From the NCBI GenBank assembly GCA_018985235.1, contig JADGIG010000001.1, positions 62,001-91,304 of the forward strand: a stretch of 29,304 nucleotides of DNA. The letters are read 5' to 3'. The DNA is from Sanchytrium tribonematis (Eukaryota). A model generated the notes under the pieces. The model searched no databases and was not told where the DNA came from. It worked only from the letters and a program-made list of their open reading frames with translations. The position numbers were made by a program, and so were the translations under genes. Of this stretch, positions 7,465 to 29,304 are shown piece by piece. The first letter of the stretch is position 1. Every line of letters begins with the position of its first letter.

Positions 7465-9869
7465 ATGAGTAGCGAAACTATTATATCTTATCATCAAGTC
7501 TTTGCGACTTACCTTGGCGAAAAAATAGATCCTTCTTCCCGGACAAATGCTAGACAAAAATTATCATTACTTTCAGAGAACCAATTTGGGGAACTAGCCA
7601 CGGATATACATGATGAATTGAAAAGACGTATATCTGTTGAAAAAATTCCATTTTTACAGGTCAGAAGCGATTTTCATCCAAAAAGAAATCAAGCTAGACA
7701 AAAATTGGCTACTTTACCAGAAAAAAGATTTAGAGATTTAGTAATTGATGTTATCGTGGAACTCGAAAGAAGATTTCCAGAACTTAGCACAGAAGAAACG
7801 AGTAGGCAGTCTACCCTTAAAAAAAGTGATCCTGTATTATCCCAAAAACCAGAAACTATTTTGAGTCCTAAAAATGAACTATCACCTTTGACAAAAGCAG
7901 ATGTCGTCCGCGAAGCTTATAATAAAGAATATTTGAGGGAAACGAAAAGTGTACAGGGTTCAGGTGACTTGAATTTTGCCAGCTTAGATTCTCTTATGAA
8001 AGACTTGGGAGATTTGGTAACAGGAAAATCAGATTCGACTGAAGATATTGTTCCTCAAAAGAAGAAGAAAGTCACTGAATCAGTGTTGTCGCTAGAAAAT
8101 TTACCGAAATCAGAGGACACTGCTAAAATTAGGAAGGAAAAAGAACTTTTGGAAAAGAAGTACCGGCAGGTAGAGTCAGATCTTGAGAAAGAAAGATCAA
8201 AAGTTCTTCAATGCCAAAAAGAACTCGGTGCAGCTCAGATTGAGTTGCAGAAGAGTAAATCTGAATTGGAAACCCTGAATTCTAAAAGAGGTGTTATTGA
8301 GAAGGAAGTAGATAGAGTTAAAGAATTGTTGGACAAGGAAAAAGCTCTTAGGCAAGCTGAAAAGCGGGAGCTTGAGCAGAAACTATCTTCAAAAGATTTC
8401 GAAATCCAAGAAAAGCAAAAAATTATTTTAAATATGGAGTCGATAGCGAACCAAAGTCAAAAGGCGCTCGATAAATATTTGAAGGAAATTGACCAACTCA
8501 AGACTGATAATTTGAGGCAGCTAGGAGAAATGAATATATTAAAGAAGAAATTATCCGAATTCGATTCCAAATCAGGCAATTTACACGAACAAGGCAGTCA
8601 AACAAATCTACTCACTGAAATAGATACTAAATCGAAAGATTTAGATCGAGCTTCTTCTCAAAAGCAGAAATCACCTTCTAAACTTGGAAAAAGCGAAGCC
8701 AAATTGGAAGGTGTCCAAAAAAGTTCCGAGAAGGATATCAATGGAGATATTAACAAAACTGATAGTAAAGTTTCAGATAAGAGTGAAAGCGTATCACCAA
8801 ATAAGTTAAAGTCTAAAGTACCAGAATCTTTATCAAAGGCCCCCTCGAGTTCGAAATTGAACGTCGAGAAAAAACCTAATGTTGACATTAACAATCTTCC
8901 ATGGGAAGTTTCACGTAAAACAATCGTTGTGTCGCAATTTTTAGACTCTGTAACCATTGATGATATAACTCCGTCAGTCAAAGGTGGGGTTGTTCCCTCA
9001 AGGCTTGGGGCATTCCAAAATTCTGTAGACACACTTCTCGATTCTCAGAAAAGCGGAGTGCCTGCTGATATTTTAGTAGCTATGAAGTCCATAGTGATAG
9101 CTTGCAAAAACATCACTAACGACATTGAAAAGTTCGAGTCCACGAGTGCTAGCGAAACTGCAAAAGAATCATTAACAGGTTTAAAAACTCAACTTTCTTC
9201 TTCCTTAACGGCATTAATGACTGCGGCCAAAAGCCACGCCACAGGGCTAGCAAAAGGCTCAAGCAAGTCGACTTCTGAGGACATCGAGAGAGGCTGTGAA
9301 GATTTAACAAAAGTGATTATCAATATTTTAAAAATTGCTAAAGTTAAGGCAGAAAAAGTCGATGAAGATGACATACCACTCAAAAAACTAAAAGATATGT
9401 CTCTAACACCGTCTGCAGAAACAAGCCCTCAAAAACAATCCAAATCAGTGATGTCTTCTGCGGATTTGAAAGTAATAATTTTTTAATTTAGACATTTCTT
9501 GAGAAACAGACAGATGTTATTGTTCAAAACATACAGCAATTACTATCACAAATGCGGACGGGAACCTTTGAAAACGAATTTCGGAATACAGTATCTGATA
9601 TATCAATTGTAGTTAAAAATTTATGTACAGTTTGTGAGGATGCCATTATAAGGAGTCCCGGCTATGAATCTCTTCGCACAGGTTCAAAGTCAATTGTGGA
9701 AGATCTGCAAAGAAGTAATGTTGAGCTTTCAAAGCTTGCTGACGAAGTCGTTGCTGCCTACTCAAAAGAGGGTGCTACATCTGAAATTGTACGCGGACTT
9801 AAACAAAAACTCGCTTCATCTAGCTATGAAATAGCAAAATACACCAAAGAACTAGTCAACCTTTTATAA
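7465..9869 (+). CDS. SPA2: Polarisome scaffold Spa2 (GIT/SHD repeats, coiled coil, C-terminal helical domains), 794 aa; exons 7465-9471 and 9492-9869
   Basis: Two Spa2-homology repeats (ARQKLSLLSENQFGELATDIHDELKRR; RNQARQKLATLPEKRFRDLVIDVIVELERRFP). After splicing: LKTFLEKQTDVIVQNIQQLL...KQKLASSSYEIAKYTKELV. Confidence 0.92.
9472..9491 (+). other. 20-nt intron in SPA2 (GTAATAATTTTTTAATTTAG)
   Basis: Removal puts the 9552-9869 ORF in frame and restores the C-terminal domain start. Confidence 0.92.
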
Positions 9870-10301: not shown

Positions 10302-10339
10302 AAAATAAATTTTTTTCTCCACAAAACTTCACAGCCTCT

Positions 10340-11386
10340 ATGACTCAAACTCTCGACGCTTCAACCTTACTAATCGAAGACAAAGAGAATATACCCATCA
10401 AGTCATTGAGCAGCTGCTCCTTCGCAAGGCCAGTAGTGCGACGAATTTGTCCGTCTAGCTGCCCGTTAGCTGCCAATTTTTACTACCTTCTATTTGATAT
10501 CCAATATCAAATGATCATGGTAGAGTCGCAAAACATTCACATTTTCCAAGAGTGTGAGGATAGACAATTTTATGGTTGGATAAAAAAAATGGCATTATGC
10601 CAATTAGAAAGATCGACGGTCTGGCGCGCTTGGTTTATATATCTTTGCACACACAAAAAGTTTATGATAAACGATACCTACTTGGCTACTTGCACTTGGA
10701 TTGCAATAAAATACGACGAAGATGTAGCTCCTGCATTTCATACAATTTTGAAATTATTTGACACTAATCCTAAAGATATCCAAGCCAAAGAAAGGGAAAT
10801 TCTCTGTTCTGTAGATTACAAACTTAACCTATTTACGCCAAACGAGTGGTTAACCTTGTATCTCAGAATGGCAGTTTTACGAACTCCATCTTTGTTTTCT
10901 GAAAAAAATCCCGCTGCTACTGCTAGCTACTTTGAATCCAGAAAAGGCTTAGATCCATACCATGTTCACTATTTGCCTGACATGGCTACGCTTTCTCGTG
11001 CATTTTTTCTCTTGGATATCTTGTCTTTGCACCCGAGCACTAGGCGTGTACCTTACTCTAAAACTGCTGCTGGAATCTTCATGTACATGTTTAATGATGG
11101 TAAATTTTAGTAATATAGACGATTATGTGAAAAAAGTCACTGGTTATCCTGCCCAAGTCCTTGAAGACATTATTGAGACACTCGACGACATTTTAATGTC
11201 ACAGCATATCCCGGAAAATTATATCTTCGATCCCAAAGACCCAGAATGGTAATCTGTAATTTATTTAGGGTCCATGTTCAAAAAATACCAATTTCAAGAA
11301 ATGACATGGAAAATTTGGAAAAGCAACAATTTGAGAACGATTGTATGTTGACGCCAAAAGACTCACCATGTCGAGCATATTCTTAG
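10340..11386 (+). CDS. Divergent cell-cycle cyclin, 335 aa; exons 10340-11099, 11119-11248, 11269-11386
   Basis: Cyclin-box helices LERSTVWRA...ATCTWIAIKYDEDVAP...AKEREILCSVDYKLNLFTPNEWL, then YSKTAAG and KKVTGY in the C-terminal box. Two introns give a continuous frame. Confidence 0.8.
11100..11118 (+). other. 19-nt intron in cyclin (GTAAATTTTAGTAATATAG)
   Basis: Removal gives GAT G|AC GAT TAT GTG AAA AAA GTC ACT GGT TAT (DDDYVKKVTGY). Confidence 0.85.
11249..11268 (+). other. 20-nt intron in cyclin (GTAATCTGTAATTTATTTAG)
   Basis: Matches the intron consensus. Removal extends the ORF by 38 codons to a TAG followed by TAAATT. Confidence 0.75.
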
Positions 11387-18667: not shown

Positions 18668-19738
18668 TTATAAAAAATTCGCTTCGTCGCATAAAGTTTT
18701 ATAGCCGCCTAAAAAATTGTAAGTAGACATATCAAAATTCAAATTAGAATATGCTATAAAAGAATCATGGCCTCTGCGGCAAATAAAAATTATGTGTTTT
18801 TGAAAGCTAACGTGACTTAAAATTAAATTTTTGCATTTTTCAGGATTAAATATGATGTGATTAATTGGAACATTTATGGAATTTGGAATATTATATACGG
18901 AATATTTCTCCGCCGGCCTGACATCGACAATTAAACTGTTGTCTTTAATGGACAGAAATGTATCAAGGTCGATCCCTTCATAGGATTTTTCACACACAGG
19001 CGATTCTATAGGATATTTTTTAGTACCGCAAGCACCACAAGATGATTGGATGGGTCGAAGCTTCACCTTTCGTATATCCCATGTATTGAATTGGATCCTG
19101 AGCAAGGTAGATTTCAAATTTGAATTTCCAAGGAGAATATTGTTGACTTCAATAGCTTGAAGACACCCGAATGTTCCTGGTACTGATCCAATTACTCCCA
19201 TATCATCGCAACTGCTTATAATGGGAGGCAGGCAAGGATTAATGCATCTATAACATGCAGAATTCGGAAAAAAAGTAGTAATTTGTCCTTGTAGTGCTAC
19301 AGCGCTTGCAGATACCCAAGGCTTTTTATAAATTAGACAGGCCTCGTTGATCAGGTACTTTGACATCGGGTCATCCACGCAATCCACTATGACATCGTAA
19401 TTTTCAACCATGTTGGAATTTTCTTTAGTGAAATGCGATTCTATTTTCAAGTTAGGCATTGATTTTAGTAAAGACTCACTTTTCTTCACCCCAATGTTGT
19501 TTGAATGCAAATATTGTCGATGAATATTAGATTCTTCAACTAAATCGTCATCAGAAACTCCAACAGTAATTCCAGAGAAGTAGAGGTATGGAATGCATGT
19601 ATTACCTAACCCGCCACAACCTATTACAAGCACTTTGGAATTACGTAGTATGTTGTGCTTTGTTAAACCGAGAATTCCCATTTGCCTAGCATAGAGATTT
19701 AAATCGTGAGTAGCAACTGTTGAAAATTTTGGTTTCAT
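18668..19738 (-). CDS. UBA4: Adenylyltransferase/sulfurtransferase Uba4/MOCS3
   Basis: YARQM, VLVIGCGGLG, SNIHRQ, CYRC, SCDDMGVIG, CGACG and rhodanese CRRGHDS. Confidence 0.93.
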   Translation of the reverse strand: MKPKFSTVATHDLNLYARQMGILGLTKHNILRNSKVLVIGCGGLGNTCIPYLYFSGITVGVSDDDLVEESNIHRQYLHSNNIGVKKSESLLKSMPNLKIESHFTKENSNMVENYDVIVDCVDDPMSKYLINEACLIYKKPWVSASAVALQGQITTFFPNSACYRCINPCLPPIISSCDDMGVIGSVPGTFGCLQAIEVNNILLGNSNLKSTLLRIQFNTWDIRKVKLRPIQSSCGACGTKKYPIESPVCEKSYEGIDLDTFLSIKDNSLIVDVRPAEKYSVYNIPNSINVPINHIIFNPEKCKNLILSHVSFQKHIIFICRRGHDSFIAYSNLNFDMSTYNFLGGYKTLCDEANFL

Positions 19739-21829: not shown

Positions 21830-22423
21830 TCACAATTTATTGATTTCGTTTCTCATTCTTACAGTTTCTGAACGCCATTCGTCCGCTAACAGACGATTTT
21901 TAGGGTTCAATTTAAATTGCGCTAATTTTTCATCCCTGGCAGCATTTCTTAGTTGTCTTATAGCATTTCTAGCCTTGAGTGCCGATGTAACTGGTCCATC
22001 TTTATATTCTTGAAATGTTGGTATATCTGAAGTTTCAGTTAATGTTCTCTCGACTCGTTTTCTTCCAGTAGAAGGAATCGAGGAATGAATCGAAATCGAG
22101 GTTTCTGATTTAGCATCATATTGCTTAAGTTGTGGATATATATCCATAACAACAGCGCAAATCACATCATTTAAATATTTTAGATGCAATAAATCTTTCT
22201 TTACAACTAGTTTAGCGTCTATGTGTGACAAATCTAGTTGGGTAAGAACACTTAAAAAGTCGATTATCATTTGCATTGATTGTATTGGGTCTAGGGATGC
22301 TTTAAATTTAATTTGTAAAATGTCTTCCAATAATAATAGCCATAATGTAGAAGGAACGTCTCTCAAATGATAAATATAAATTGGCCAGTTGAAATACTCA
22401 AATATCGAATTCAATAAAAGCAT
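21830..22423 (-). CDS. DUF5745 / CEP95 N-terminal-like domain protein
   Basis: I..L.D....W..L.E.IL...MQMIIDFL...LDLSHI....VVK.D...LK.L resembles the CEP95 N-terminal domain. The start is uncertain (first in-frame ATG is 22423). Confidence 0.6.
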   Translation of the reverse strand: MLLLNSIFEYFNWPIYIYHLRDVPSTLWLLLLEDILQIKFKASLDPIQSMQMIIDFLSVLTQLDLSHIDAKLVVKKDLLHLKYLNDVICAVVMDIYPQLKQYDAKSETSISIHSSIPSTGRKRVERTLTETSDIPTFQEYKDGPVTSALKARNAIRQLRNAARDEKLAQFKLNPKNRLLADEWRSETVRMRNEINKL

Positions 22424-22606
22424 CGCGTTCCAAAAATATTTCTGAGCCAACTTTTCCTGGTTATGAAACCATGAAATACAAATCTGGAATAATCAACAAT
22501 TTAAATTTGAATGAACTGTGCTTGACTTAACCTTGGATGAAGATCATTTAATTGTAGCCCAAATAGATATGCCCAGTCTTGTAGATTAATTCAATCTCCT
22601 TGAAAT

Positions 22607-24385
22607 ATGTTTACTTTGTTTGCAGACATAGACGATAGTTTGCCCTCGACCAGCATGACGGGTTACCAAATTTATTTTGTGGAAGAGTTTGTTTGTCAGC
22701 AGTTACAATTCAAAAGTATTTTGATTTACACTGGAAACAACCAAGATGAAGTGAAATTATATCAATACCCGATTAGCAACAAAGTTCCACATATTTCCAA
22801 TTTACCCAATATTCAAATGAAAAAGACTGAATACGGAAATCTTTTTTATTTTGAATTTCATCAAGTAGGATTAAAAATTATTCATAGTCAGACTTTTGAT
22901 CTTGACTTAATGCACCAACATATTACTCTTCAAAAATTTGGGATAATTGACAAGCTTCCGTTTGCATTAAAGCCAATATCCGAGTCAGTTGTTACTAAAT
23001 TAAACCATATGTACAAATTGCAAGCAACTACGACAAATTATAAATCATTTTTACATTTAATGCTACAAATATTATCATCAGCAATCAAGGCATTTGGCAT
23101 AAGTATACCGGTATGTTCATTTTTCAGCAACTCATTATTGAATTCGTATCAAGCCTGTCTCACATTGTTGAATGTTCCTTTAACGTTGATAATCTCCCCT
23201 AAATATTTTTCCTTAATAGTTTCGAAAGTTTTAGGATACAGAAACAAGCTCAACTTGCTGCTAAAAGATGTCACTAAAGACCCGTTCATAGACATTGAAA
23301 ATCTTCTTAAGGCCATATCCAGTTTTCAAAAAAGCAAAGATCTTTATAGATCAGGATATCTTGATATTAAGACAATGAAGCAAATAGACTTGTCATATCA
23401 AAAGCACAAGGAAAGGCACATACCAAATAAAATAAAATCCAAACTCGAGGATCTTAGCGGGATTCAGCAAAAGATTTTATTTGTTTCCGTTGATTCTATT
23501 GAAGAGCTTCTGGAATATCAACTAGGGGAAAAGTTAGGATTGCTATGGTCAAAGGAAGAAAAAGAAGTTGAAGGATTGCTTAAAGGCGGAAAAGAATTTG
23601 GGAAGTCGTTAATCAAAAATGTTCAATCAAAGACCCTTATTTCAGACGGTGAGAGAGTTCTTTCTATCAGTCATCCCCTAAACCCGCTAAGCAAGAAAAG
23701 AAAAAGCTCAACCAAGAGCTCTGATATACCAGAATCTCCACGATTGCAAGAACCGAGGCGTGTGGCCGAAATACAAACAAGCAATGATCAGAATCACTAT
23801 GAAATTTACGAACTAAGTTTACTAAAAATGAAAGCAAAGTCAACAGAAAACTTAGTACTGGTCAACAAGGCACTTCGAAGAACATTTTCTGAGACAGATT
23901 TACAATTATTATATGCAGCAAAAAGTGAAAGTCAAGATGCTCTTTTGCTAAATGAAGTGAATGATTTATTCCAAGTATTAAACTCTAAGGAGTCGGCTTT
24001 AGAAGATAATTTGAGATCGCTTCAGCAACTTGAGCTTGAATTACAAACAGAAAAAGATGCTCTTTTAAAGAAATGTGATTCGAAAAAGTCAATTATAGAT
24101 GGATATGAGTCTGTGGTAAATGCACTGCTTAGTACTCAAAATAAAATTTCTAAGAATTCAGAAGAAAATGGGAAGCGATTAAATCAAGCGAAAAAAGAAA
24201 TGCAACAATTTGAAATGCAACTAAGCAAAGTTGAAGACACAATAAGCATTCTTTCTAGTAAAATTGCTGACAACGCAGAAACTGAAAAAAAGCTTATCGA
24301 ATCGGCTAAGCCTGTTTCCTTGATTTCGACCATTATAAAATGGAGTGTGAATATGTTTTACAACAGCCAAAAGTCACCGAAATAA
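22607..24385 (+). CDS. Stb6/Stb2-like protein with C-terminal coiled coil
   Basis: GYQIYFVEEFVC...ILIYTGN, TEYGNLF, SKVLGYRNKL and KDPF resemble the fungal STB6 family. Confidence 0.75.
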   Translation: MFTLFADIDDSLPSTSMTGYQIYFVEEFVCQQLQFKSILIYTGNNQDEVKLYQYPISNKVPHISNLPNIQMKKTEYGNLFYFEFHQVGLKIIHSQTFDLDLMHQHITLQKFGIIDKLPFALKPISESVVTKLNHMYKLQATTTNYKSFLHLMLQILSSAIKAFGISIPVCSFFSNSLLNSYQACLTLLNVPLTLIISPKYFSLIVSKVLGYRNKLNLLLKDVTKDPFIDIENLLKAISSFQKSKDLYRSGYLDIKTMKQIDLSYQKHKERHIPNKIKSKLEDLSGIQQKILFVSVDSIEELLEYQLGEKLGLLWSKEEKEVEGLLKGGKEFGKSLIKNVQSKTLISDGERVLSISHPLNPLSKKRKSSTKSSDIPESPRLQEPRRVAEIQTSNDQNHYEIYELSLLKMKAKSTENLVLVNKALRRTFSETDLQLLYAAKSESQDALLLNEVNDLFQVLNSKESALEDNLRSLQQLELELQTEKDALLKKCDSKKSIIDGYESVVNALLSTQNKISKNSEENGKRLNQAKKEMQQFEMQLSKVEDTISILSSKIADNAETEKKLIESAKPVSLISTIIKWSVNMFYNSQKSPK

Positions 24386-24407
24386 ATTTTGTGTTTACAA
24401 AAGGGGG

Positions 24408-25253
24408 ATGGAAAATATTCGACGACCTCTGGAACTTTACTCAAAGAATTATGCTTTGCATGAAGTGTACAACCCATGTCAATCAAATGGATATTATCTT
24501 CGTGACAAACATCAAGAATTAATTATGATTAGAAACCGTACATCAACCATTGATGGACCCCTATTTTACATTATTGGACAAGAAGGTGTAGAATTAAAAT
24601 TAATAGATATTTTTGGGCGATTAAAATGCCCTGGCTGTTGTACAAATCATAAATCGTTTAAAGACTTAACGGACCATGTGAGATTATCCTTTGTGGGGAA
24701 AGCCAAACTGATTGATTTGGGTGTGGATGTTGTTTTAGCAATTTTCTCTTATAAAGATTCCAGAAATTATTGGTCATGTGCGGAATGTGTCAGACCTACG
24801 GGAAAGCTAGAGCTTGAGGTCATTCCTATACCTATACCATCAGCTGTGAACCCTGTTTATCGATACAAGACGTACTTGAACATCAAAAACGCTTGGAATA
24901 ATGCCTTTAATAATTTTTGTGGAGAAAAAAATGAAAATTTTTATGCTGATCCTAGGGCTTTATTAATTCACATCTACTCAGTGTCTATGGATACTATTTT
25001 GAGTCAATTACACATTCCAACTTCGAAGCCTACAAATTCTTTCATATTTATTTTGTTGACATGCCACATTGGAGTAATGTTGGTTGAATTAGATTTTTTA
25101 AAATATTACAAAATTTTACTTTTGGAATTATACTCTAAGAGAATGATCAGCCTTAAATACGTTGAAGAATGTATAAAGATATTATCAGCTGTTAAAAGCT
25201 TCACTTTGCCATGTAAAGATGAAGATTATAGAAAAAAAACTAAATATATGTAG
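24408..25253 (+). CDS. Hypothetical protein with CxxC motifs (possible zinc binding)
   Basis: 281-aa ORF with CPGC-x12-H and CAEC. No family recognised. Confidence 0.6.
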   Translation: MENIRRPLELYSKNYALHEVYNPCQSNGYYLRDKHQELIMIRNRTSTIDGPLFYIIGQEGVELKLIDIFGRLKCPGCCTNHKSFKDLTDHVRLSFVGKAKLIDLGVDVVLAIFSYKDSRNYWSCAECVRPTGKLELEVIPIPIPSAVNPVYRYKTYLNIKNAWNNAFNNFCGEKNENFYADPRALLIHIYSVSMDTILSQLHIPTSKPTNSFIFILLTCHIGVMLVELDFLKYYKILLLELYSKRMISLKYVEECIKILSAVKSFTLPCKDEDYRKKTKYM

Positions 25254-26280
25254 CAACTTTTCGAAGTTTCTTTACGGGTCCTTCAGTAAATTGTATGGCT
25301 TCTTCTTTCTTTGGCACGTTTGTCAATCTTGAGACTGCTTGCAAACTAACATATTCTAAAGCAAAAAATTTTGATGGCATTGGAGGAGATCTTTCGTAAA
25401 CAGACCGACCATCCACGATAAATTTAAGGGAAGCGCTTGAGTCGCTATGTAATTCAAAATTATATTTTTCTTTATGTAATGATATAAATAGTAGAGTCGA
25501 GGACGTTTTGCTTGTATGAGTACCCAATTCAGTCACCTCTAGCAAATTGTCTGGAATGCCTTTTTTCAAAAACTGAGGATTCAACTTTAAAAAATCAAGA
25601 GCCTCGCTTGCTAAAGTTGTAGCACAGTAAAATTTGTTTTTTAGAGTAGAAGTGAATCGCTTCGAAGCAATTTGAATATAAGAGAATTTGGCTTCTAAAT
25701 TTATGCTCACTTCTAAATGCCAATACTTAAAATAAAGCTCAAATAATGGATTGTGAGTGGAAAGTATTTCAAGCAAATCTTTTGCACATTTCTCGATATT
25801 ACAAGGTTCAAACGGCGCATGAATCTTCAGGCTTGGTATTTCCAAAAAGTTGGAATCAGTAGTCATTTTAATTCCGATAGCATCACAAAGTGTTTGAAGT
25901 GTACTGAAATGCATAGCACAGGCATTCCCAATTTCGCCATTGTCCATATGATCAATAGAAGTACTACTGTCGGTGTCCTCATTTAAGGCCTGGCGAGACA
26001 ATGATGGCTTATATCTATTGATTTCTTCAGTTAATAAAACTGAAGTGCTTTGAATAATATCTTTTTTGGATTTTCCAAGTTGTATTACATCTAAAACTTT
26101 CAAGCATACATTTGACTTTGATTCCTTCTTAGTTGATCGGACATCCCCATAGACATCTAATTTCAATTGCTGTATTGTAGCTTTACATATAAATCCATTT
26201 TCAAATGGGGTAATTGCAAACAATATATTGTACTTATTTTTTTGGCAATATTCATTGAGCTTTATTTTAAGTATTGGCAT
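25240..26280 (-). CDS. dsRNA-binding-motif (dsRBD) protein, probably with additional degenerate dsRBDs
   Basis: KIKLNEYCQK...GFICKATI...YGDVRSTKKESKSNVCLKVL is a recognisable dsRBD. Later segments (NPLFEL...TLASEALDFL; FIVDGRSVY...SKFFALEYVSLQAVSRL) look like degenerate copies. Confidence 0.75.
   Translation of the reverse strand: MPILKIKLNEYCQKNKYNILFAITPFENGFICKATIQQLKLDVYGDVRSTKKESKSNVCLKVLDVIQLGKSKKDIIQSTSVLLTEEINRYKPSLSRQALNEDTDSSTSIDHMDNGEIGNACAMHFSTLQTLCDAIGIKMTTDSNFLEIPSLKIHAPFEPCNIEKCAKDLLEILSTHNPLFELYFKYWHLEVSINLEAKFSYIQIASKRFTSTLKNKFYCATTLASEALDFLKLNPQFLKKGIPDNLLEVTELGTHTSKTSSTLLFISLHKEKYNFELHSDSSASLKFIVDGRSVYERSPPMPSKFFALEYVSLQAVSRLTNVPKKEEAIQFTEGPVKKLRKVATYI
25698..25742 (+). 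repeat. Left arm of perfect 45-bp inverted repeat (AATTTATGCTCACTTCTAAATGCCAATACTTAAAATAAAGCTCAA)
   Basis: Exact reverse complement of 26255-26299, checked base by base. Confidence 0.95.
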
Positions 26281-26299
26281 TTAGAAGTGAGCATAAATT
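26255..26299 (-). repeat. Right arm of perfect 45-bp inverted repeat; spans the TAA-ATG junction at 26283-26278
   Basis: TTGAGCTTTATTTTAAGTATTGGCATTTAGAAGTGAGCATAAATT on the + strand, with a 512-nt spacer to the left arm. Confidence 0.95.
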
Positions 26300-26607
26300 G
26301 AGATCTTTTCAATGGTATTAATTTTTGGATTTTCGTTCCATTTTTCACTCTCACTTTTGAGCCATTTTTTTCCTACCTCGGATTTCATATATTCTAGACC
26401 AAAATTAGATAATATACACTCAATTAGTGTTTCTCGTTCAATAAAGTAACAAGGACTAACGGGTTGACAATAAACCCACAATTGTGCTTTGAATCCACTC
26501 TTAGAATTATTCAACAAGTGTTTTTCCTTTTTAAATTGATAAGGAGCATTAATAGAATTCATAGATACCTCAAAAGATTTAATATCTTCAAAGGTAGCCA
26601 ATTTCAT
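26281..26607 (-). CDS. 108-aa ORF, possibly a degenerate dsRBD, in frame with and directly abutting the dsRBD gene
   Basis: YQF.....GFKAQLWV....E....S..GLEYM has dsRBD-like spacing. The ATG is preceded by CCTTG, like other starts. Confidence 0.55.
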   Translation of the reverse strand: MKLATFEDIKSFEVSMNSINAPYQFKKEKHLLNNSKSGFKAQLWVYCQPVSPCYFIERETLIECILSNFGLEYMKSEVGKKWLKSESEKWNENPKINTIEKISIYAHF

Positions 26608-26652: not shown

Positions 26653-27978
26653 TTATTTTCGGTGCACTCGATACGGCTCGAAATTGTTCAACGTAGATGA
26701 GCCAGTAGAAGCACCGCTACTATTGCTATTTAGAGTTCTGTTGGAGGAACTAGTTCCAGCACCTCTGTAATTTCTTGAGGGTCCTGCAGGCCGATTAGTT
26801 CTTCCTGGCCTACTAGAATTTTTGTTTCCTCTAGCATGTCGTGCTGAAGCCGGTGGCAAGTTATAGTCTGAAACATGAGAACTCACCATTGTGTTAATTC
26901 TATCTGACACTTGAGACGACACCATTGTTGGAGTTTGGACATGCGGAACGGGTGGATAACTGCCTTGAGAGAAACTGTAGTCAAAACTTTTCGCTTGGTT
27001 GGATGGATGAGGAGAATAACCAGGATCATAACCCACTATGTGTTCCTCCACATATCCGACATCTGGCAAAGTTGCCTCAAAATTCTCAGAAGCAATAGAG
27101 CTTGACGTTTCTAGGCCTAATAGTTTTTTCTTTTGCTCATTTGCTAGCATTCTTTTCTTTCTTTTGTGCAAGATCTGAGTGATTCTCTTATCGATTTTGT
27201 GAGTAGCATAGCCGCGAACTGAACCTTGGATATATGTAGTTATGAGCGGTATATATATAGCAATTGCGGTTAAAAACCTCAGTATACTCAAAAACCACAG
27301 AAAAACAGTAAATATAGAACCATATGTCGACAATATTTCAAACTTCAACCCATTTTTTAATTGTGTCGCTTCGGAAAACATATTAGAAAAACTACCGCTT
27401 TGCTGATATAGCGCAAATATAGACACTATATTCAGTATACGACGTGGAGTCTCCGCTGCTGTAAATTTCCAATTTTTAAACGAAAAAAACACAAAAAAGG
27501 CTAGATTATCTCTTAATTTTGTACTATTCGATACAACTTGAAAGAAACAAAAATGAGAGTAGCTTCTAATTGAATAATATGTTGAAGCCATTTCTGATGT
27601 GAATGCACTAGCAATATCGCCTGACCTTATAATCTTTTTAGCGTTTCTCCATTCATAAACCAGAAGCGCTGTAGATAAGATAACCGACACAATATACAAA
27701 TACGGTCTATAAATATAAATTTTTAAATTTTCTGCCCATTGTACCTTATTTTCGTTAGATGTATCACCTTCGTCTCTTGAAGCTAGTTGCTTAAAATATA
27801 GATACATAATAAACAAATCCGCTACAAAAACTCCAACGCTTTTGAAAACTAAAGCATAAAGAACGCTGTATTTTATCCGTAGAACGACATTATTTGATTT
27901 GAAATCAGTAATTCGAATATCTGAAAATTTGTGCTCCACTACGTTTTCTTTTTTCCATTTGGCGTCGAAAAATCCCAT
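26653..27978 (-). CDS. KCH1: Fungal low-affinity potassium transporter, Kch1 family
   Basis: EHKFSDIRITDFKS, VFVADLF, ILSTALLVYEW..A..II..G, AFFVFFSF..W...AETPRRILN and HKIDKRI, followed by a disordered tail. Confidence 0.8.
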   Translation of the reverse strand: MGFFDAKWKKENVVEHKFSDIRITDFKSNNVVLRIKYSVLYALVFKSVGVFVADLFIMYLYFKQLASRDEGDTSNENKVQWAENLKIYIYRPYLYIVSVILSTALLVYEWRNAKKIIRSGDIASAFTSEMASTYYSIRSYSHFCFFQVVSNSTKLRDNLAFFVFFSFKNWKFTAAETPRRILNIVSIFALYQQSGSFSNMFSEATQLKNGLKFEILSTYGSIFTVFLWFLSILRFLTAIAIYIPLITTYIQGSVRGYATHKIDKRITQILHKRKKRMLANEQKKKLLGLETSSSIASENFEATLPDVGYVEEHIVGYDPGYSPHPSNQAKSFDYSFSQGSYPPVPHVQTPTMVSSQVSDRINTMVSSHVSDYNLPPASARHARGNKNSSRPGRTNRPAGPSRNYRGAGTSSSNRTLNSNSSGASTGSSTLNNFEPYRVHRK

Positions 27979-28758: not shown

Positions 28759-29124
28759 ATGTGGCAAAGATATTTTTTCAAGAGATTTCAATCATTAAAA
28801 GCCACAGGTTCAACTCACTGGACCTACGAAAGAGTGTTAAGTGCAGCTCTAATTCCTTCTGTAGGTTTTGCATTGTATACTGGAGAATTGCCAGCTCCTT
28901 TAAATTACATTACAGTCTCAGCCTTAGTACTTCATTGCCATTGGGGCCTAGAGCAAGCTCTGATAGATTACGTACACGTTCGTAAATTTGGCGCAATTGG
29001 GACTAGTGCTTTGTATGCGACCAAAGGTTTATCAGCATTGACGTTGTTGGGAGGTTGGTATCTCTGCGCACATGACATTCCACTTGAAGGACTCAAAGCG
29101 TGGTGGCACAGGAATGATTCCTAA
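28759..29124 (+). CDS. SDH4: Succinate dehydrogenase cytochrome b small subunit (CybS)
   Basis: Short mitochondrial presequence, GSTHWTYERVLS and LHCHWGLEQALIDYV. Confidence 0.93.
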   Translation: MWQRYFFKRFQSLKATGSTHWTYERVLSAALIPSVGFALYTGELPAPLNYITVSALVLHCHWGLEQALIDYVHVRKFGAIGTSALYATKGLSALTLLGGWYLCAHDIPLEGLKAWWHRNDS

Positions 29125-29130
29125 TAAAAT

Positions 29131-29304
29131 TTACTGGGAGAAAATACAAACTGTATCTGTTATTTTAAATACGTTTTCTGTTTCTTCAAAAAATATTCCC
29201 AAATGTAAGTTTTTCTTAATCTCTTTAAAATCATTTAAAAGCAATATGGGATTTGGGGAGTTTCGATTCCTTTCAGGGCGAGGAACATGGCCAAAAAATA
29301 AGCT
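29131..29304 (-). CDS. 3' end of an unidentified gene entering from beyond the window
   Basis: Frame open from the window edge (SLFFGHVPRPERN...DTVCIFSQ) to a TAA in TAAATT, convergent with SDH4. Confidence 0.55.
   Translation of the reverse strand, partial: SLFFGHVPRPERNRNSPNPILLLNDFKEIKKNLHLGIFFEETENVFKITDTVCIFSQ

Follow-up and report, generated by a model that had tools for sequence, protein, structure and literature searches.

Two adjacent reading frames are very probably a single multi-dsRBD-like gene interrupted by a templated 28-nucleotide patch

The two open reading frames (ORFs) that meet at a TAA-ATG junction in the window, as the whole stretch of 29,304 nucleotides analysed here is called, are very probably parts of one multi-dsRBD-like gene that was broken by a templated patch. 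The intact gene likely encodes a single product that has several dsRBD-like domains in about 475 residues. The patch itself is likely an artefact, introduced by a template switch in vitro during amplification or library preparation or by the assembly, rather than a product of the living organism. As biology, the locus is most likely an ordinary orphan multi-dsRBD-like gene that was wrongly cut in two. Both gene fragments, of 108 and 346 aa, have already entered the protein collection, where they are listed as separate proteins.

The earlier note had described a 108-aa ORF ending in CAC TTC TAA and followed immediately by the ATG of a dsRBD gene. This junction is present in the window sequence, where the 108-aa ORF (26607-26281, minus strand) is followed with zero spacer by the ATG at 26280-26278 of the 346-aa ORF, which shares its strand and frame, and read-through of both ORFs gives 455 residues, as had been calculated. 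The 45-bp duplex reported for the region exists as well, and the stop lies near the middle of one arm. The junction is true of the assembled window; the DNA run X1 has a different, longer sequence at exactly the same spot. A TTG pre-start motif was found, as claimed, not more than 13 nt before the ATG at 26607, and none was found before the ATG at 26280. The motif is real but weak, being present at 10 of 21 other first ATGs and at 25 of 116 internal ATGs (p 0.026). The TAA at 26281 lacks the A-rich end context that is present at 12 of the 18 other stops in the window. A stop without this context and an ATG without the TTG motif both fit signals that were never real. The statement that no GT-AG intron could remove the stop did not hold formally, since six in-frame GT..AG pairs of 117-198 nt could do so, as could six GC..AG pairs. 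It did hold for introns of the size that appears to be used in the window (19-22 nt), none of which spans the stop, and removal of the stop by an intron was rejected on size.

X1 was the one DNA run found for the region; it is possibly the window's own source and is not independent. It was compared as assembled contigs, and contigs drop rare variants. An X1 contig of 6,574 nt with a depth of 45.2 matched the window at 22000-26263 and 26292-26516, with one other letter over 4,264 + 225 aligned bases. Where the window has the 28 letters 26264-26291, including the TAA and the ATG, this contig carries 88 letters; it is a near-identical sequence that represents the unswitched state, with the one other letter over its flanks. 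The depth bin 26148-26391, which takes in all 10 X1 records including 3 that are absent from the joint table, reads 40.0. This value equals 45.2 x 216/244, and none of the contigs of X1 therefore covers the 28 letters. The difference between 88 and 28 letters amounts to +60 nt and keeps the frame; that the frame is open through the 88 letters was deduced from their number alone.

A second haplotype was observed in X1 at 26517-26581, 28923-28998 and 29037-29143, with a divergence of about 9-10% within patches. At these three bubbles it made up 28%, 40% and 36% of the local depth. The changed codons of the second haplotype were silent in 16 of 17 cases in CybS and in 3 of 6 cases in the 108-aa ORF. 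The CybS count indicates that the second haplotype is real, and its presence at three places that the X1 sample was heterozygous or mixed. The window takes the deeper X1 path at all three bubbles seen. The X1 contig is unbroken through both repeat arms, and the patch form left no contig. The lack of a contig of its own and of any break in the existing one suggests that the patch form is rarer in X1 than the second haplotype, or absent. This step draws on the general way in which contig builders handle a side path of low depth.

The inverted repeat has a perfect core of 45 bp (25698-25742 / 26255-26299). The next longest perfect inverted repeat in the window measures 18 bp, and in 30 of 30 Markov simulations the longest had 14-18 bp. 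The mRNA-sense strand folds into the 45-bp stem with a z of -8.8, and 0 of 20 shuffles folded as well. A length of 45 bp against a simulated maximum of 18 bp, together with this fold, shows that the repeat is not due to chance. The 18-bp repeat (10309-10326 / 24915-24932) just reaches the largest size seen in the simulations and is probably a chance occurrence.

The 45-bp core splits exactly into 9 + 28 + 8 nt, that is, the patch and its short matching flanks (Table 1). All of the 28 patch nucleotides, with all four bases represented, are complementary to 25706-25733, where at least 10-14 nt are asked of a template switch. This 9 + 28 + 8 structure is what a template copy made by switch and return leaves behind. 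More generally, an inverted repeat within coding DNA that is long and perfect and holds a stop in one of its arms can serve as a sign of a templated patch. The TAA ATG is the antisense of the donor codons CAT TTA (His-Leu). As the stop-start pair is these two codons read backwards, no selection is needed to explain it.

In the proposed mechanism, the growing strand would leave its template at one of the short matching flanks. The polymerase would then copy 28 bases from the donor, which lies in the opposite sense at a distance of about 530 nt within this gene, and the strand would rejoin its template at the second flank, 88 bases beyond, with the switch points in the order 3-2-1-4. Either strand could have served as the template. 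Such a switch would create the 45-bp repeat with a net loss of 20 codons, and the stop-start pair would arise by chance. The organism itself would presumably make a single uninterrupted mRNA and protein, free of the hairpin and of an internal stop. Once the stop is left out, the patch has an unremarkable codon usage, at the 14.6th percentile of 6,250 blocks. No block other than the one at the junction had a strongly negative codon score; this signal came from the stop itself and was not used.

Table 1. Features of the interrupted gene and of the patch (positions in the window)
Feature	Position	Strand	Evidence or remark
108-aa ORF, very probably the N-terminal part of a single gene	26281..26607	-	BLASTP to the N-termini of the relatives; in-frame codon score like that of other genes
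108-aa ORF, composition	26281..26607	-	codons 1-105 native; codons 106-108 and stop from the patch
346-aa ORF, very probably the C-terminal three quarters of the same gene	25240..26280	-	aligns to P0005 residues 148-486
346-aa ORF, start	25240..26280	-	first residues MPILKI derive from the patch
TAA-ATG junction	26278..26283	-	sequence; antisense of donor His-Leu codons
28-nt patch with TAA and ATG	26264..26291	-	reverse-complement copy of 25706-25733; 88 other letters in X1
8-nt flank, putative switch point	26292..26299	-	in X1 contig; perfectly complementary to 25698-25705
9-nt flank, putative switch point	26255..26263	-	in X1 contig; perfectly complementary to 25734-25742
Donor arm, native coding sequence (YFKYWHLEVS region)	25698..25742	-	X1 contig coverage without listed difference; ungapped against both relatives
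Best-conserved dsRBD, residues 116-173 of the joined frame	26089..26262	-	Pfam dsrm, E 0.0028, 18.6 bits
Putative C-terminal dsRBD-like unit, about residues 360-430, transferred from P0005	25318..25530	-	P0005 model; alignment to the window

Relatives were sought among 1.84 billion protein representatives at a threshold of E 0.001, and five proteins passed. Two of these were the window's own ORFs. P0007, a repetitive fish protein of 2,278 aa that matched in 12 stretches and had no dsrm, was dropped. The true relatives are P0005 (512 aa, E 1.7e-34), which matches both ORFs, and P0006 (497 aa, E 8.8e-19), which matches in one stretch over query 2-428. In BLASTP, the 108-aa ORF aligned to the N-terminus of P0005 with 39% over 96 aa (E 1e-20) and to that of P0006 with 33% over 97 aa (E 1e-13). 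The earlier note had proposed a check of whether orthologs are a single ORF, and both relatives are indeed single proteins that cover both ORFs of the window. They are two only, with 27-31% identity, and were compared as predicted proteins. The linker between NP and LNE has 47 and 45 residues in the relatives and 24 in the window; with the 20 extra codons of X1 it reaches 44 residues. In both relatives the 13th residue after NP is a Gly, and at the corresponding place the native base of the window is a G. The linkers of the relatives share the motif PY.SEPQVY..WK with a score of 73, which was reached by 0 of 2,000 shuffles. This motif had no match in the window, and the best tblastn hit (E 0.12) lay elsewhere. 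Because the relatives have this longer conserved linker, the read-through protein would still be about 20 residues short and would lack the linker motif.

Further searches added no members. A word-index search with the read-through protein yielded only the window's own ORF (1 of 3,790 candidates), the family profile found P0005 and P0006 among 7,996 candidates and nothing else, and 0 of 597 pattern hits were confirmed in a metagenome scan. Among the titles listed in literature searches, none concerned this locus or protein family, which is no proof of absence. The proteins form a small unnamed family of about 500 aa, in which one dsRBD is clear and several others are likely degenerate, and which has three members in the 1.84 billion representatives.

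The assignment of the 346-aa ORF as a dsRBD protein in the earlier note was supported by Pfam dsrm with an E of 0.0018. In the window, dsrm (PF00035) scored 18.6-19.2 bits (E 0.002-0.003), which is below the cut-off of 23 bits, while the relatives pass this cut-off with 28.9 and 31.6 bits. The family profile matched the dsRBD of R2D2 (E 0.0018). A model of P0005 built from three sequences was poor overall (mean pLDDT 42) and showed the order helix-three strands-helix up to five times. Residues 410-481 of this model matched solved dsRBDs with a Z of 8.6 and an rmsd of 1.4-3.0 over 63-70 aligned residues. The 108-aa part corresponds to a model region with the same order of elements and a pLDDT of 27-72; the 108-aa ORF itself had no Pfam match at E<=1, and its best Atlas score was 0.76. 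Comparison of the units with each other by profiles gave probabilities of at most 2.2%, phmmer against PDB sequences gave 0 hits, and modelling of the read-through protein from its sequence alone gave no usable structure (mean pLDDT 32.6). A Foldseek search with the model of P0005 found nothing at E<=0.001, with dsRBD proteins filling most of the top rows. Among the Atlas neighbours were Loquacious, TRBP, Staufen and DRB clusters at 0.84-0.87, which are leads only. The protein would likely act as a non-catalytic dsRNA-binding or Dicer-partner protein. The closest known proteins are tandem-dsRBD proteins without a catalytic domain (R2D2, Loquacious/TRBP/PACT, Staufen and plant DRBs). The likeness consists of one dsrm and a C-terminal dsRBD fold and, in the predicted model, of the repeated helix-three strands-helix order; full-length sequence similarity to these proteins is lacking.

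That a template switch wrote the stop into an ancestral single gene had been the first alternative of the earlier note, and the evidence supports it, with the event possibly in vitro or in the assembly. Consensus assembly normally outvotes single chimeras, which counts against an artefact. In favour of an artefact, the second haplotype left visible bubbles at 28-40% of the depth and the patch form left none, and the patch is inverted, local (about 530 nt) and joined at matches of 8 and 9 nt, as are chimeras of the MDA type. Amplification chimeras have been described as 85% inverted, local and primed on matches of 2-21 nt (PMC1855051), and elsewhere with overlaps mostly of 5-8 nt and distances that peak at 250-300 nt and range beyond 5 kb (PMC4595205). 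The deletion of the intervening sequence is a further likeness to the MDA chimeras of both reports. The patch differs from them in needing two switches, out and back; such 2-level chimeras are rare and made up 564,397 of 24,595,400 and 445,861 of 15,664,038 chimeric pairs, or 2-3% (PMC4595205). The same patch could also be a real recent mutation, a possible but clearly less probable origin, in which a template switch during replication or repair in the organism placed a broken allele beside the intact 88-letter allele, carried by one haplotype, a sub-population or a sister isolate. The second haplotype at three places in X1 shows that the sample was mixed or heterozygous, as this origin would need, and contigs can drop a variant. 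The order 3-2-1-4 is moreover a type known from nature that gives rise to inverted repeats without needing one beforehand and that, together with its mirror, makes up 31% of the human-chimp events of high confidence in the report of Loytynoja and Goldman 2017 (PMC5453318); in yeast, 39 genes with coding DNA altered by template switches have been reported (PMC8604942). Like the events of PMC5453318, the patch is a reverse-complement copy of nearby sequence and leaves a new perfect inverted repeat together with an indel; it is larger than the local clusters of a few tens of bases that were to be explained there, with its donor at a distance of about 530 nt and a loss of 88 nt. Against a real allele, the 28 letters occur in no contig, although the known minor haplotype leaves contigs, and the window otherwise follows the major X1 path. 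The 45 bp have zero mismatches and hence give no sign of persistence, and the allele would knock out a linker motif that is kept in both relatives. A real allele would show in a clean form how one template switch can produce a gene fission and an mRNA hairpin at once. It is improbable, though conceivable, that such a young allele, split in frame by a single switch over about 530 nt and carrying the 45-bp duplex in its own mRNA, is regulated by its own dsRBD product binding this duplex or is translated by restart.

The main proposal of the earlier note, in which A-to-I editing of the stop, read-through or restart at a junction fixed in the genome would switch between short and long isoforms, is very unlikely. 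In its favour are the high stability of the duplex, the in-frame position of the stop directly before the ATG, and the presence of the TTG motif at the upstream ATG only. A Trp placed at the stop was aligned by MAFFT with a Trp common to both relatives; this alignment was discarded as noise, as it needed split gaps and as 3,617 and 2,705 of 5,000 patch shuffles scored as well, and Trp was not the best residue at the stop against either relative. The proposal is weakened by the absence of the junction from the X1 contig and by relatives that are single proteins with a longer linker. According to the account in PMC11156358, A-to-I mRNA editing in fungi has been reported only in Pezizomycotina, prefers loops and a U at -1, and turns UAA into UGA, which is still a stop. 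The stop in the window is a UAA in a stem, unlike the loop preference, and the gene content (fungal KCH channel, CFA20, tiny introns) points to an organism outside Pezizomycotina. Stop-correcting editing of the PUK1 type in filamentous ascomycetes also concerns an in-frame stop inside a single gene, but there UAG is edited to UGG with loops preferred, whereas here a UAA lies in a stem within a non-homologous patch (PMC11156358). The PUK1 stop is encoded in the genome; here it is absent from the X1 contig, with the reservation that contigs can drop rare variants. By our own reasoning, correction of the stop should also restore a collinear full-length protein, and the linker would still have 24 residues against 45 and 47. 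That these are two genes had been another alternative of the earlier note. Two genuine neighbours, produced by a fission in the lineage and with a true stop and a true start on either side of a short spacer within the 88 letters, must likewise be regarded as highly improbable. Tandem spacers are short here, for example 45 nt from the KCH stop at 26653 to 26607, so that 88 nt could hold one, and the listing of the ORFs as separate proteins agrees with two genes, although it mirrors this assembly only. On the other hand, the additional 60 nt are in frame and bring the linker back to 44 residues, both relatives are unsplit, a search with the family profile found short forms in 0 of 779 shorter candidates, and the stop lacks the end context of most other stops of the window. 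That the window is right and the X1 contig wrong, or a foreign path from a paralog, another strain or a mis-join, can hardly be credited. Joints at a likeness below 95 can come from other organisms or repeats, and the likeness was set to 85; the contig nevertheless showed a single other letter over both aligned stretches, of which the shorter has 225 nt, and two independent relatives agree with it in the additional length.

The window is compact, has a G+C content of about 34% and contains genes for a fungal KCH channel, CSE1, CFA20, Rav1 and CybS. At 295-277 (-), 3911-3892 (-), 9472-9491 (+) and 11089-11110 (+) the window probably contains very short introns, which are AT-rich, of the GT..AG type and 19-22 nt long. 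Introns of this size are unusually small for a fungus-like genome. With the 20-nt intron 3911-3892 taken out, the two parts of the Pfam CFA20 match (1-93 and 121-184) come to lie in one frame, and taking out 9472-9491 connects a GIT-like gene with its GIT1_C domain; longer intron alternatives likewise keep the frame. The genes are tightly packed. Between the ThiF-rhodanese ORF and the first ATG of the Rav1-like ORF there is an overlap of 25 nt (18668-18692), and the end of the dsRBD gene overlaps a convergent 281-aa ORF by 14 nt (25240-25253). This ORF (24408-25253, plus strand) and the adjacent ORF of 592 aa (22607-24385, plus strand) had no Pfam match at E<=1, and the codon score of the 281-aa ORF was normal.
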